Source: Octopus sinensis
Taxonomy: Eukaryota
Direction: 5' to 3'
Assembly (NCBI RefSeq): GCF_006345805.1
Contig: NC_043015.1
Coordinates: 33,356,001-33,420,000, forward strand
Length of the DNA: 64,000 bases
In this document: positions 9,809 to 61,215 of the stretch, one piece after another
Numbering within the stretch: position 1 is the stretch's first letter
Layout of the letters: each line of letters starts with the position of its first letter
Notes under the pieces: generated by a model
Seen by the model: the letters and a program-made list of their open reading frames with translations, nothing else
Databases searched by the model: none
What the model was told of the DNA's origin: nothing
Translations under genes and position numbers: made by a program

Positions 9809-9874
9809 CCGGAGTAAACACATAATGTGAAACAAGGTGGAAAAAAAGAGTACTCAAATACCAGTGGTAGAGTA

Positions 9875-10010
9875 ATATGCTTTATTTAAAGCAGCAAAAA
9901 TTCTACAAAACCTGTTACTCTGAGTTTCGCGTTGCCGTTCATCAGACGGCAATGCGAAACTCAGAGTTACAGGTTTTGTATAATTTTCTGCTGCTTTATA
10001 TAAAGTATAT
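9875..10010. repeat. ~135-bp near-perfect hairpin with a hammerhead core (CTGATGA, minus strand) as its loop
   Basis: Arms of ~60 nt with few mismatches flank TCATCAG (9939-9945). The minus strand reads CTGATGA-ACGGCAACGC-GAAAC-TCAGA-GTA. Confidence 0.85.
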
Positions 10011-11912
10011 ATATATATATATGTATGTATGTATATATATGTGTGTGTATAAAAGTTGACCATATTAGAGATTAACAACATATTTTATTTTGATTGGGTT
10101 AGTCTCATGGTACTCCGAGTTTCGTCTATAGGTGCACCAGATCTTCAGGCAAGTTATAACTGAAGAAAATGATGGACTTCGTACATTTATATAGATTTGC
10201 TGTGATAGACTGAGATGGCAGAGACTAAATATGATAAAAGGGTAAAATGAAAAAAAAGAAAGGGAAAATAAAGGAAAGTGAACGAAACAAAAGAAAACAA
10301 GAAACAAATATATATATATATGTAGACATTCATACATACAAACATCATGTGTATGTTGTCAAAAATTCAATGGAAGAGCTTTGGTTTAGGGTTAAAATTT
10401 GGTTGTTTGGCCACTGGTGAGAAATTTGGAAAATAGTCCTGGAAGAAAACGTACAAAGACAAACTTTTCCAGCTTCTCTATTTGTTCATGCAATCACATC
10501 TCTCCTTTACATTTGCTCATACAAACATACTTTCCACCTGTCCCCCCAAACAAAAACACACAAACTCTTTCCACATCCTTCTCTCTCTCTCACACAGATA
10601 CTAGAATCATCAATCACATTCAGTTGGATTACATCAAACCATTAAGAGTGTCAGAGCAGTAGAAGTGGCCAGTAGTTATTTGAAACTGGATTGAGAGAGT
10701 AGTGGTGGTCATTAGTTATTTCAGAATGAGACTATTTGGCATGGCTGACAGGACTGAATGTCTTTTGGGGACAGTACTTTTTGGCACTAGAGGCAGACAC
10801 ACACACATGTACATGCATGCACACACACACACACACACACACACACAAGAATGACAGAGCTTGGACTTTCATACTCTGGAAATTATGTCAGTATTGTAAA
10901 ATACCAACAGAAAAAATATAGTAGAAATGCCGGAAAAGTACAATCTGACCATAATTTAGGACATGCAACATTGTAGTTGGAAAGATGAAAGCGAATTGAC
11001 CAGATGTTGCTGTCAAGGACAACCAAAATACAAGAATATAGAAAAAAAGGAAATACCTCCCATTTGATGTATCAACCCCAACACATGATAATGAATTACA
11101 TTAAAAAAAAGCCCATCTTTCTGAATATAAAGATATGGGAAAAAAGATAATGGGAACATGAGGGTTGCAAACAAAAGCTATCGTCATATAAATGGTTACC
11201 ATGAGACTGATTAAAAAACAGCAAACAGACGCATAACCAAAACAGATGGACTTATATGCACACAATGTACTATTAGCTACTATACATGTATTATTTGGAC
11301 AAAACACACACACACAAAAAAGAAAACAAATGCTGCAGGAACCCAAGACACACCTAAAGCAGTGCTCAGCCACACAACGACAGCATGCAACGAAACACAA
11401 ATTCTATGGAAAATAATGGCATAAAACATTTATTTTTCAGCAAGTGAGAGTTTTATGTATGAAAGCCGTTCTGATATAGGTTTTTGATTATATTTTGAAA
11501 TTTCAACACTTTTTTCCTGGATGGAACTGTTAAAGTCCATGAACAGACAAACAGAAATAATAACTGCTATGTTAACCCTCCCCAAACATGCTCCTGCTGC
11601 TGCTGCTGCTTTTGCCAGTAATATAAAATGTGAGATGGAAATAAAATATAGAAAAGCCAACAAAACAGAATGTGAAATAGCTTTTATAGTTAGTGCAGGA
11701 GATGAAACACTATAAATGTATCAATCAACATCGTCAGCGATATCATCACATTCACTGGTAGCAGCAGCAGCAGCACTAAAACCCTCGCAATAACCACCAC
11801 AATGAATACCAACTGCACAACCACTGTCACAATCACCACCACCACCAGCAGCAGCAGAATTGGGTCTCATTATTTATTTAACTATAAACACGTCTATCAT
11901 AATGTTGCTACT

Positions 11913-15500: not shown

Positions 15501-16074
15501 ATTCATTTATTCATAAAACTGTTAGAAAAATGTTACAGAGGTTTAAAGTTTGATCATTTTCACCCAACCAGAAAACAGGATTTGTATGTAAGAGTTGTGA
15601 TAGAATGAAAGCAAACATTAGAAGACAAAGTTTTGAACAAAATGAAAGCAATGTGTGTGAGTTAATATAAACAGAATGGTAAATATAAATGGTAAATTGA
15701 TGGTGACAATTAGGAGGAGACTTGTTGATCTAAAAATTGAGTTATTTCATGCAGCAAATTGAACTGCTTGTATTATTATTATTTACAACCTTCTCATCGG
15801 GACACAGATTTTGAAAATCAAATTCATTTTTTTCTAGAAGACACAACGGTTCAGAGCCTCCAGGACATATATTCGCATTTATAGAGTAGATGTATACACA
15901 CATATACAAGTACATAATACACAAACATACATACATACACATATGATGAAGGTGAGAAAGCTAGAACTTCGAAGTCACTGTCAATCCTTCACTGATGAGA
16001 ATTTAATATACATGCACTCTACGAAACAGTATTGAGTAACTATTCAATTAATGGCATCAGTGGTGCTTCTACCC

Positions 16075-57990: not shown

Positions 57991-58127
57991 CGACAGCAAA
58001 CGGTCACCAACTTGCAGACGGCCATCTTGTTCAGCAGCCCCACCATCTATTATTTTGGTTACAAATATACCGTGGTCATTTGGAATGTGTTCATTGCCCA
58101 CACCTCCAGCAATGCTAAAGCCCAAAC
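57991..58127 (-). CDS. dlg1: Discs large MAGUK exon, N-terminal part of PDZ2 ([46 protein letters not shown])
   Basis: The translation matches the DLG/PSD-95 PDZ2 signature. Acceptor cttcttttcag|GT and donor TCG|gttagt; 137 nt, phase 1 to phase 0. Confidence 0.95.
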
Positions 58128-58311: not shown

Positions 58312-58346
<35 letters not shown>

Positions 58347-58369
58347 CAGCAGTTCAGCACCACCATATT

Positions 58370-58680
58370 ATATATACTGGATAGTCAGAATAGACAATAT
58401 ATACAACTGTTGGTCAATATAAATAAAATATATATACTAGTTAGTCAATATGAATATAATAAATACACTACCTGGTCAACATCAACATAATATATATACC
58501 ACTTGGTCAATACCAGCATAACATTTACCAGCTGGTCAATAGCAACATAATGTATTCAATAGCTGGTCCACAACAGCATAAAACACTATTTGGTCAATAC
58601 TGATATATGCACCAAATGGTCAACACCAACTGGTCACTACCTACATAATATATCCACCAATTAATCAACACCAACATAAT
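58370..58680. repeat. Degenerate ~30-nt minisatellite with TGGTCAAYA core
   Basis: About ten recurrences of (t)ggtcaa/tagtcaa at roughly 28-33 nt spacing. Confidence 0.75.
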
Positions 58681-59042: not shown

Positions 59043-59139
59043 ACATATATATATATATCGTTTGTTAAAAACATAAATCCAAAAGAAGTAGCACACCCTA
59101 AGATGAAGAGCAGTATATATTCAAAATGGGGAAGGCCAG

Positions 59140-59219
59140 CTTATGGGGATTACCTTAGGTTTCCATAAACCATCCATAAATGGTTTAGCTTTATGGCTAA
59201 TCGTCAGATCCCAAAAACC
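59140..59219 (-). ncRNA. Type I hammerhead ribozyme motif (left arm, sense to the dlg1 pre-mRNA)
   Basis: The minus strand reads GGGAT-CTGACGA-(CCATAAA/TTTATGG stem II)-GAAA-CCTAAG-GTA-ATCCC. Stem III ACCT-A-AGGT is near-palindromic. Confidence 0.7.
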
Positions 59220-59232
59220 TCTTGGGCCAACA

Positions 59233-59307
59233 GGTTTTTGGGATCTGAGGATATGCAATAAAGCTAAACACTTTATGGGTGGGAAACTTAAGGTAATCCC
59301 ATAAACC
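59233..59307 (+). ncRNA. Type I hammerhead ribozyme motif (right arm of a fold-back element)
   Basis: Stem I GGTTTTTGGGAT/ATCCCATAAACC (11 of 12 bp), core CTGAGGA (59245-59251), stem II ATAAAG/CTTTAT, GAAA (59283-59286), short stem III AC-TTAAG-GT, cleavage triplet GTA (59293-59295). Confidence 0.75.
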
Positions 59308-60368
59308 AGCTTTCCCCATTTTATATATATATATACATGCACACACCAGTTGGTCAACACACACGCACACATACCACCACCATCACTAAACTATATAACA
59401 CACTCCAGTATATAAAGTTAAATTCATTTTACTAGATTCCGTCATAAAAGATTGGTTACATTGAAATTTTATTGAAACAATTTATCATGTTAATTATTAG
59501 TAATACGAAAATGTCAAACATATTTACAGATTACCGAGATAAATTACTCAGAGATGCCATCAGTATGAAAATCCAGAGTTAAGTTGGAGGTGAACATATT
59601 TAATGCTGAGCATCAATTATCTAATTATAAATACTGATTACAGATAGAAGAAATGAATTTTAATTCAATATCTAATATTTAGCAGTTTAGCAAATATGGG
59701 AGACAACTCTAGTTATGCTTCAATCTTCTTAAACCTCCTCTGCTCCACTGTTCTTACTGAAATTACCAAGTAGGTAATCATAACTTGTGTAGGAGTGAAT
59801 AACTACTCAGAGATGCATCTGCTTCATAAATTAGCAGTCAAGCAGGAGTGAACATAGTTAATGTAAACAATCATAATATTTAATTAAAAAAGACTAATGA
59901 GATAGCAAGAAGAGAATATTAACAAATTACATCAATAATTCTAACTAGATACCTGATAGTCTACCTTATCAAAATTTACCATTAATTAAATAAACATATT
60001 TAAGTGCTGCAGTAGAATAATATTGGGGGTGAGATAACTGCAAGTATATTTGATAAGTAACATTAATATTGAGAGTCCTACCAATTATGGAAGTAATTAT
60101 AAGATTACATCAGTTCTTAGAACAGAAATAATGTTAGAATTAATAAACTGATTCCCACATACAGAACTGCTTGGTTAATATGCAATATCATTGCAAATGA
60201 TAATAATAGCATTTTGCTAAGAGCAGAGGCTTTATGCACTGGAACTATAGAAAGTAAAGAAAATTACAAAGAGAGGCTTTTGGCTGAGAAACTGAACATG
60301 AAGGGGGAGGGTATGGAATCACATGTTCAATTCTAAAGACAAAGTAACAGGAGAATATTCATGGAATT

Positions 60369-60627
60369 CTGTTGTGTCTGGGGAGAGTCATTTTCTTTTT
60401 GTGCCTTATTATTTAACACACTCACCGGTAAAATTTCCACTTATTTCTTATTTTTATTTTCCTAAAATTTTCGTTGCATCTTTCAACCTTTTTCAATAGT
60501 CTTAACTCTCAAGACTATTGAAAAGGTTGCAAGATGCAGCGAAAATAAGAAATAAGTGGAAATTTTACCAGTGAGTGTGTTACATTATATGGCACAAAAA
60601 GAAAATGACTCTCCCCAGACACAACAG
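60369..60627. mobile_element. Fold-back/MITE-like element with long inverted arms
   Basis: ctgttgtgtctggggagag...caatagtc pairs with gactattg...ctctccccagacacaacag. A single-arm copy is at 54047-54168. Confidence 0.85.
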
Positions 60628-60649
60628 AATATACTTCAACACACAAACT

Positions 60650-61215
60650 CATATAAAGAATCTTGCAAACCAAATCCAAAAACGAAATATTCATCGATTT
60701 GATTGACAAAAGATGATCTCAGGAGAGAGACAGAAAGTTTGTTGGTAGCTGCTTAGGATCAAGCACCAAACACAAATTCAATAAGGAATATGTCATACCC
60801 AGATGAAACAAGTAAGTGTAGGTTATGTAGGAAGAAGGTAGAAAGTCTAACACATATCATGGGAGCCTGAGACATGCTTGCGCAGAGAGGGTATAAAAGG
60901 CATCATGGTAGTGTTTGCACCCCAACTGGTCTTTATGCAAGAAATATGGGTTCCCAACCACTGAAAAATGGTATTAACACAAACTTGAGAAGGACCTAGA
61001 AAATCAAACTGTGAAATGCCAGTGGGACCAATTGTGATTGGAGCATGGAATCTGTTGCACCATTAAGGCACTGCAAAAGACCATGCTTTTGGGAACGGCA
61101 AATATTCTGTGGAAAGTACTGTCTACCTGAGGTAGACTTGATATGGTGTCGGTTAAATGATCCACTGTTAACCAGATGACCACTGTGTAAATGAAGGAAT
61201 AAGAATAATTATAAT
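60650..61215 (+). mobile_element. R4/Dong-like (RLE-type) LINE 3' fragment
   Basis: ETESLLVAA*DQA, zinc-knuckle-like CRLCRKKVESLTHIMGA, LAQRGYKRH and LQKTMLLGTANILWKVL; ends in an AAT-rich tail. Confidence 0.7.

Follow-up and report, generated by a model that had tools for sequence, protein, structure and literature searches.

Mirror-image hammerhead ribozymes in an octopus intron as the folded-back end of a Penelope-like retrotransposon

A palindromic element that carries a hammerhead ribozyme core on each strand, located in an intron of Octopus sinensis, is almost certainly an insertion of a Hydra-clade Penelope-like retrotransposon (PLE) that is 5'-truncated and inverted head-to-head. We consider the full account, in which this folded-back PLE end is decaying and both of its ribozymes are predicted to be buried, to be very likely. 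The presence of two ribozyme polarities is a by-product of the inverted insertion, and the element belongs to a new family of Hydra-clade PLEs in an already known inverted arrangement. Coordinates refer to the window, the whole stretch of 64,000 nucleotides of contig NC_043015.1 that was analysed.

Results

The element is an asymmetric fold-back

The whole element extends from about 59057 to 59327 and is bounded on both sides by (TA)n target tracts (59043-59058 on the left and 59321-59336 on the right); in the family, TATA follows 29 of the 40 scored long ends. Its long arm (59057-59228, minus strand) is the 5'-truncated 3' end of the PLE, consisting of pLTR and tail, and lies in sense orientation relative to the host pre-mRNA. 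The short arm (59219-59327, plus strand) is an inverted 5'-truncated copy that stops at the short end and has no tail. The two arms share an imperfect 10-nt overlap (microhomology) at their junction (59219-59228), and both are cut back to about 110 to 170 nt, the entire insertion being one hairpin. The ends of this copy (L001) were scored against the natural copy L101 and lie at 0 and -55, and comparison of the flanks of the 20 best matches in the genome revealed a one-sided tail and (TA)n in both flanks. The element is therefore asymmetric, with a single-copy tail of 55 to 65 nt in the flank comparison (about 55 nt by end scoring) that is present in one arm only, on the left (59057-59113, minus strand). 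The first-pass annotation had described a palindrome at 59123..59322. The fold-back itself is well founded, with a predicted energy of -125.5 kcal/mol (z = -15; none of 200 shuffles folds as well), but its extent has to be corrected to the span given above, with its one-sided tail.

The host gene lies on the minus strand, and we take it to be dlg1 from its similarity to DLG1. The exon at 57991-58127 (minus strand) encodes a dlg1-like PDZ2 from the GLGF loop on (Pfam PDZ, E 7.8e-12), and the preceding PDZ exon lies about 8.3 kb away, past the end of the window (exons found in L161, L164, and L165). The earlier placement in a dlg1 intron upstream of PDZ2 is thus right as to the dlg1-like intron but not as to the word upstream, as the intron of about 8.3 kb splits the start of PDZ2. 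A contig from a sequencing run with another organism label covers 59136-59310 with 1 difference. The greater part of the fold-back is present there, which makes the insertion older than that split; with the flank equally close, the match is no sign of conservation. Among the assembled contigs of five putative RNA runs, the listed matches are short or have many differences, as expected of paralogues. In view of RNA editing in cephalopods, the hairpin of about 100 bp at 59114-59331 would be likely to serve as an ADAR substrate in the pre-mRNA. Degenerate repeats of about 31 nt (families D1 and D2) occupy 58336-58680, upstream of the element.

Each arm carries a damaged hammerhead with an intact core

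A complete type I hammerhead core (CUGANGA, GAAA, and UH) on each strand, as claimed in the first-pass annotation, is present in both arms. In the long arm (hammerhead at 59146-59212, minus strand) it consists of CTGACGA at 59207-59201, GAAA at 59163-59160, and GTA at 59153-59151, and in the short arm (59233-59307, plus strand) of CTGAGGA at 59245-59251, GAAA at 59283-59286, and GTA at 59293-59295. The cuts predicted earlier, between 59151 and 59150 on the minus strand and after 59295 on the plus strand, agree with these sequence positions, and our recount of plus-strand stem I likewise gives 11 of 12 pairs. The hammerhead pattern, expected 0.33 times in the window, has 5 matches, the two arms among them. 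A covariance-model search, which had been proposed as a check, did not bear out the assignment: no hammerhead family was among the 20 Rfam matches to the element at E <= 10. Most of these are weak miRNA-hairpin matches, which we rejected as an identity since they merely mirror the hairpin.

The short palindromic stem III of the dimer type was recognised correctly. It is a 4+1+4 palindrome that reads ACCT-A-AGGT in the family, and self-pairing of this segment is predicted at -10.2 kcal/mol for the minus arm and -6.4 kcal/mol for the plus arm. Both hammerheads are damaged outside the core, the minus arm by 6 extra nucleotides in front of GAAA (near 59164-59170) and by the loss of proximal pairs in stem II, and the plus arm by one broken C-G pair in stem II and a U.G wobble in stem III. 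The divergence of the arms noted before, including G versus C at N7, is real and is of the nature of decay after insertion; the commonest N7 in the family is C. A U.G at 10.1-11.1 is also present, but it is a family trait (74 of 87 arms) and not an imperfection peculiar to this copy. Among published Hydra-clade hammerheads, U.U at 10.1-11.1 is common (PMC8557442, supplement).

Other parts of the window contain related structures. A second fold-back family, with one tail and in (TA)n, is represented at 9830-10010 (531 candidates). Most of its copies have a CCGATGA core, a U4C variant; the canonical CTGATGA core occurs in the 9830-10010 copy and two others of 13, and the difference is probably due to CpG decay. 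Its stem III is also 4+1+4, and it is probably another Hydra-clade family. The 265-nt fold-back at 60366-60700 (96% complementary, with a one-sided extension) has a similar architecture and no match to the hammerhead pattern, and similar sequences flank L002 and other loci; it is possibly another PLE end. Single hammerhead-like cores with a stem III of 4+1+4 or 4+2+4 were seen at 10111-10148 (minus strand) and 15992-16038 (plus strand).

The element belongs to a large repeat family

The first-pass annotation had called for a genomic copy number, and the element proved to be multi-copy. A genome-wide search (2.72 Gb) returned 1484 candidates, and all 40 that were scored match on both strands, at 73 to 83% apart from the query itself. 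A 26-nt pattern has 124 exact matches genome-wide, and its reversed control has none. By a hand estimate from column rates, the family comprises on the order of 1000 arms. We fetched 74 loci chosen by the pattern, to avoid selecting palindromes, and found 33 head-to-head inverted and 41 single within 1.5 kb; the true inverted share is below 33/74, as inverted loci get two chances to match. Same-strand pairs look like local duplications in the two that were fetched (L031 repeats its flanks and L032 the whole fold-back). Homogenisation of arms within a copy was considered and rejected, since arms are no closer within a copy than between copies (distance 0.143 versus 0.150, p 0.28, for 38 pairs, one of which, L061, joins an arm with a distant match and is not a true pair). 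At L145/L146 (G000:C2:142643449-142647259), a nested inverted structure of the family has its 5' parts facing each other across (TA)n.

The parent is a Hydra-clade PLE

The arms of L048 and L049 run on upstream, with no break, into the C terminus of a GIY-YIG endonuclease, and a search with the GIY-YIG region returned 539 candidates. The longest copies read RT, a CxCx5C linker, GVVY, an Asn/Ser-rich stretch, YIG, CxxC, and CxH; all of them are interrupted by stops and frameshifts, and no intact parent was seen among them. The order of RT and C-terminal GIY-YIG in one ORF was read from these broken natural copies. L101 comprises a unit of about 2.9 kb whose 5' end carries a short arm in inverted orientation. 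In L148 the tail is continuous with the next unit, its 5' region and ORF following directly, an arrangement known for other PLEs.

The RWK motif was found in 7 of 19 loci (2 altered, 10 without an anchor) and DKT (from DKG) in 9 of 19 (4 other, 6 without an anchor). CxxC before the conserved E occurs in 22 of 30 loci, and CxH after the conserved N in 20 of 30. The CxCx5C linker was read in L081, L082, and L083; the automated count of 5 in 30 used too loose an anchor, and many loci stop short of the linker. These are the motifs by which the Hydra clade has been defined (PMC8557442, section 11). No CCHH motif was seen by eye in the longest copies, and a Neptune-like parent was dropped once the Hydra-clade motifs matched. 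Judged by its sequence, the parent would be a Hydra-clade PLE and a sister family to Hydra-1_Obim, the RTs having been compared by eye. The PLE origin suspected in the first-pass annotation is confirmed, as the element was traced to a parent ORF with RT, GIY-YIG, and the clade motifs.

ESM Atlas neighbours of the parent protein carry RVT_1 (11%), HTH_animal (50%), and GIY-YIG (23%). Pfam recognised no family in the RT and endonuclease fragments, and a PDB sequence search gave nothing useful. A protein search found 1 match among 311 candidates, a UniRef model from O. bimaculoides (P0001, 69% identity). Its name, PH domain-containing protein, stems from unrelated host domains (myotubularin-like), and the RT fragment inside it is probably a gene-model artefact. 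A search of representatives found 3321 unnamed relatives. Throughout the family, an Asn/Ser/Thr-rich stretch of about 140 residues lies inside the endonuclease motif, between GVVY and YIG (L081, L083, and L091); rotifer Penelopes carry Asn-rich inserts at other positions (PMC3846280).

The hairpin is predicted to prevail over the ribozyme fold

The first-pass annotation held the long hairpin and the ribozyme fold to be mutually exclusive. Folding predictions agree, with the hairpin favoured by about 57 kcal/mol: in full context the hammerhead fold would cost 56.7 kcal/mol for the plus arm and 58.0 kcal/mol for the minus arm. This predicted lead argues against the idea of switching between the two folds, as the hairpin would win outright. 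In the isolated arms, the ribozyme fold is still predicted to be uphill by 5.2 (plus) and 8.2 (minus) kcal/mol, and in the best natural arms of the family by 1.1 to 1.4 kcal/mol (median 4.05 over 58 arms). The head-to-head layout means that transcription of either strand yields the antisense arm before the ribozyme, and folding of successive prefixes predicts that the core is already paired while it emerges from transcription. With the antisense arm first, the hairpin would form before the ribozyme, and the host pre-mRNA would be expected to stay uncleaved. According to these models, the ribozymes of the copy at 59057-59327 are probably silent, buried in the hairpin.

Inserted copies decay neutrally at the core CpG

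We examined decay in 87 arms chosen independently of the hammerhead pattern. The core CpG offers an internal test, since by hammerhead chemistry a C-to-T change at N7 is harmless, and G8>A is lethal. Mutation of G8 abolishes hammerhead cleavage (PMC11167929). In the 87 arms, G8>A was found 23 times and N7 C>T 25 times (p 0.89), and three other CpGs behave similarly; inserted copies thus decay neutrally at the core CpG. The core is intact in 33 of 87 arms. Independent decay would leave both cores intact in about 14% of copies, and 3 of the 14 best matches have two intact cores. In the stems, 237 pair-breaking cells stand against 30 double changes, 22 of which are at paired CpGs. Compensatory changes in stem II were rejected on this basis, being decay of paired CpGs, and the covariation proposed as a check of the stems amounts to nothing beyond CpG decay within the family.

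Core adenines are mutated in 9 of 427 cases, compared with 96 of 1711 for other adenines (p 0.002; class-matched permutation p 0.011), a deficit that we read as selection on the active parent lineage. The expectation that the core is better conserved than its surroundings thus holds in direction for the core adenines but fails for G8, which decays like N7. Published Hydra families keep the 4+1+4 palindrome of stem III with differing letters (PMC8557442, supplement), which suggests from sequence comparison that the parent probably has a genuine ribozyme, one of the dimer type.

Inverted copies pair one tailed and one short end

Among 60 inverted loci, 55 combine a long with a short end and 1 combines two short ends; no pair of long ends was seen, and 4 loci are left unclassified. 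Single-arm copies stop at the short end in 31 cases and at the long end in 26, from which about 50% mixed pairs would be expected by chance. Without L111, a duplicate of L110, 54 of 55 pairs are long with short (p 1e-15 against 0.50), and without the best-match set 35 of 36 are (p 4e-10). The pairing was then predicted beforehand for 7 further inverted loci, of which 6 are long with short and 1 is short with short (the short end of L183 was judged by eye; L181 and L182 were unscorable, and L200 repeats L076). In total, a tailed end is combined with a short one in 60 of 62 classifiable inverted copies. The two exceptions (L120 and L193) have two short ends, and no copy has two tails. The second family in the window has one tail in 13 of 13 loci, judged by eye.

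Junctions are distinct in 52 of 54 copies. An overlap of at least 3 nt occurs at 19 of 44 junctions against 5% expected at random, a liberal comparison as BLAST overlaps overstate exact microhomology; gaps occur at 12 of the 44. At 47 clean junctions, the short arm reaches further 5' in 16 copies, by up to 326 nt, and the long arm does so in 19. In all 6 inverted copies chosen via the endonuclease, the tailed arm is the longer one. Arm lengths are continuous from 34 to 2743 nt. The few recurring junctions, one shared by L116 and L140 and an ATAT-palindrome hot spot in L059, L065, and L137, are located on internal palindromes. Variants are shared within a copy at 0.24 and between copies at 0.20 (p 0.68), a comparison of low power in a star-like family, and a variant site agrees between the arms in 12 of 14 copies.

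Discussion

How the inverted insertion may arise

We favour, with some confidence, an origin from two cDNAs, each primed on a different strand of the target and from a different one of the two RT start sites. The end pairing and the reach of the junctions point to it, together with in vitro work in which both strands were cut and extended by a PLE protein, from two start sites that delimit the tail (PMC11167929). In such a reaction, a dimer of the PLE protein would cut both strands of a (TA)n target; one 3'-OH would start at the far RT start site and yield the tailed arm, and the other would start about 55 nt upstream and yield the short arm. Both cDNAs would stall early, and their truncated ends would be joined via microhomology. 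The hammerhead itself is inherited with the parent's pLTR and would act as a dimer in the parent's tandem RNA. That the reaction of Hydra-clade PLEs is asymmetric, with the far RT site always used by one protomer and the near one, on the opposite strand, by its partner, is an evenly balanced proposition. If it is true, each two-armed insertion has exactly one tail and an antisense arm before the ribozyme on both strands. The pairing rule further predicts that paired top- and bottom-strand products of one target use different start sites. Speaking against an asymmetric rule, the start site of the Anolis element PAc is seemingly the same on both strands in vitro (PMC11167929).

For this one step of the mechanism, a less likely course is that a single cDNA (or an antisense template) folds back, self-primes at microhomology, and copies itself, the copy stopping at an internal ATATATA able to pair with the target. 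Self-priming has been proposed for head-to-head pLTRs with an optional tail (PMC3846280). It accounts for a tailed with a short end and for the missing pairs of long ends, for the short overlaps at junctions, and for the concordance of the variant site in 12 of 14 copies. The longer tailed arm in 6 of 6 endonuclease-chosen pairs also fits a fold-back and counts against two-strand priming. However, the further 5' reach of the short arm in 16 of 47 copies is impossible for such a copy without later deletion, the arms of one copy share no excess of variants (a result of low power), and the short end is a priming site of its own, as the 31 short and 26 long single arms indicate. Deletions at palindrome centres after insertion could be a source of variable junctions and of longer short arms.

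It is improbable that the fold-back of 200 to 270 bp was itself amplified as a MITE-like or retrozyme-like non-autonomous mobile unit. The many copies of comparable size and the few recurring junctions would suit it, but distinct junctions number 52 in 54 copies, the two ends of the element differ, and the recurrences fall on internal palindromes. A MITE or other DNA transposon has symmetric terminal inverted repeats and a uniform length, whereas the family has a one-sided tail and arms of 34 to 2743 nt. Very improbable is a functional ambisense, viroid-like ribozyme RNA or a hairpin/ribozyme switch in the dlg1 intron: both cores of the copy at 59057-59327 are intact, core adenines are under-mutated, and the contig with another organism label has a single difference, but double intact cores are expected in about 14% of copies anyway, the flank is equally close in that contig, G8 shows the same rate of decay as N7, both arms have a damaged stem II (and pay 5.2 and 8.2 kcal/mol even in isolation), the hairpin leads by about 57 kcal/mol, and with a single cut per strand no RNA of unit length can be released. 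The small ambisense or viroid-like element of the first-pass annotation is accordingly not supported, with junctions that vary, cores that decay, one cut per strand, and no tandem unit from which a circle could form.

Relation to known elements

Among the closest known elements is Hydra-1_Obim of O. bimaculoides (PMC8557442), which has in common with our family a C-terminal GIY-YIG, the RWK, DKT, CxCx5C, CxxC, and CxH motifs, a (TA)n target, a 3' type I hammerhead with a 4+1+4 palindromic stem III, and an RT that is closely alike by eye. The two differ in their pLTRs and in stem III (ACCT-A-AGGT here, acca-a-tggt in Hydra-1_Obim), in unit length (about 2.9 kb versus 2507 bp), and in the endonuclease stretch of about 140 Asn/Ser-rich residues found here. 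Two 12-nt motifs from the hammerhead of our family have 0 matches in the supplement of PMC8557442.

Inverted 5'-truncated copies beside the 5' end, often with a tail at one end only, are described for PLEs (PMC8557442; PMC3846280). Penelope-13_HM, a Hydra-clade element from Repbase, is listed with a hammerhead on both strands (PMC8557442, File S2) and likewise has a 5'-truncated inverted copy at its 5' end; one of its arms is near full length, whereas both arms of our element are cut back. In Schistosoma mansoni, opposite-strand hammerhead pairs 100 to 700 bp apart have been ascribed to truncated PLEs (PMC4209133). Unlike the octopus element, these are minimal motifs without stem III, and we found no end-pairing or junction analysis for them in the available text of that paper. 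PAc, a Poseidon PLE, belongs to a different clade, and described PLE tails measure 30 to 40 bp, compared with about 55 nt here (PMC11167929). It resembles our family in having an AT-rich target and two RT start sites that bound the tail, with both target strands cut and extended in vitro and the hammerhead dispensable for insertion; no strand difference in start site was seen for PAc, whereas octopus copies combine the two.

Non-LTR retrozymes and viroid-like ambisense RNAs (PMC7229834; bioRxiv 10.64898/2026.07.22.740005) have in common with the element a type I hammerhead with a short palindromic stem III, PLE ancestry, and a rod-like fold. Non-LTR retrozymes are head-to-tail tandems of units each with a hammerhead and release circles, whereas the arms of the octopus element are head-to-head with one cut per strand. 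A viroid-like RNA would be a unit of fixed length with both polarities under selection, and the family has variable junctions and neutral core decay. In viroid-like RNAs, the two ribozymes are distinct sequences under selection, not one motif and its mirror copy.

Inverted PLE insertions and hammerheads on both strands are thus already known, and the pairing of ends had apparently not been counted before: the literature covered by our search, which took in few subscription papers and to which Repbase was external, held no such count and no description of the family.

Significance

The finding removes a false lead, since inverted insertion of PLEs is expected to leave mirror-image hammerheads in animal genomes, and scans for ribozymes or viroid-like RNAs should filter them. 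The origin of the inverted structures of PLEs has been named an open task (PMC8557442), and the near-strict pairing of a tailed with a short end (60 of 62 copies; 13 of 13 in the second family, by eye) is the mechanistically useful part of our findings. If the proposed asymmetric reaction is true, it would explain the inverted-repeat structure of PLEs and would make insertions in host introns self-muzzling, and hundreds of long RNA hairpins would have been seeded in the octopus genome for ADAR or small-RNA pathways.
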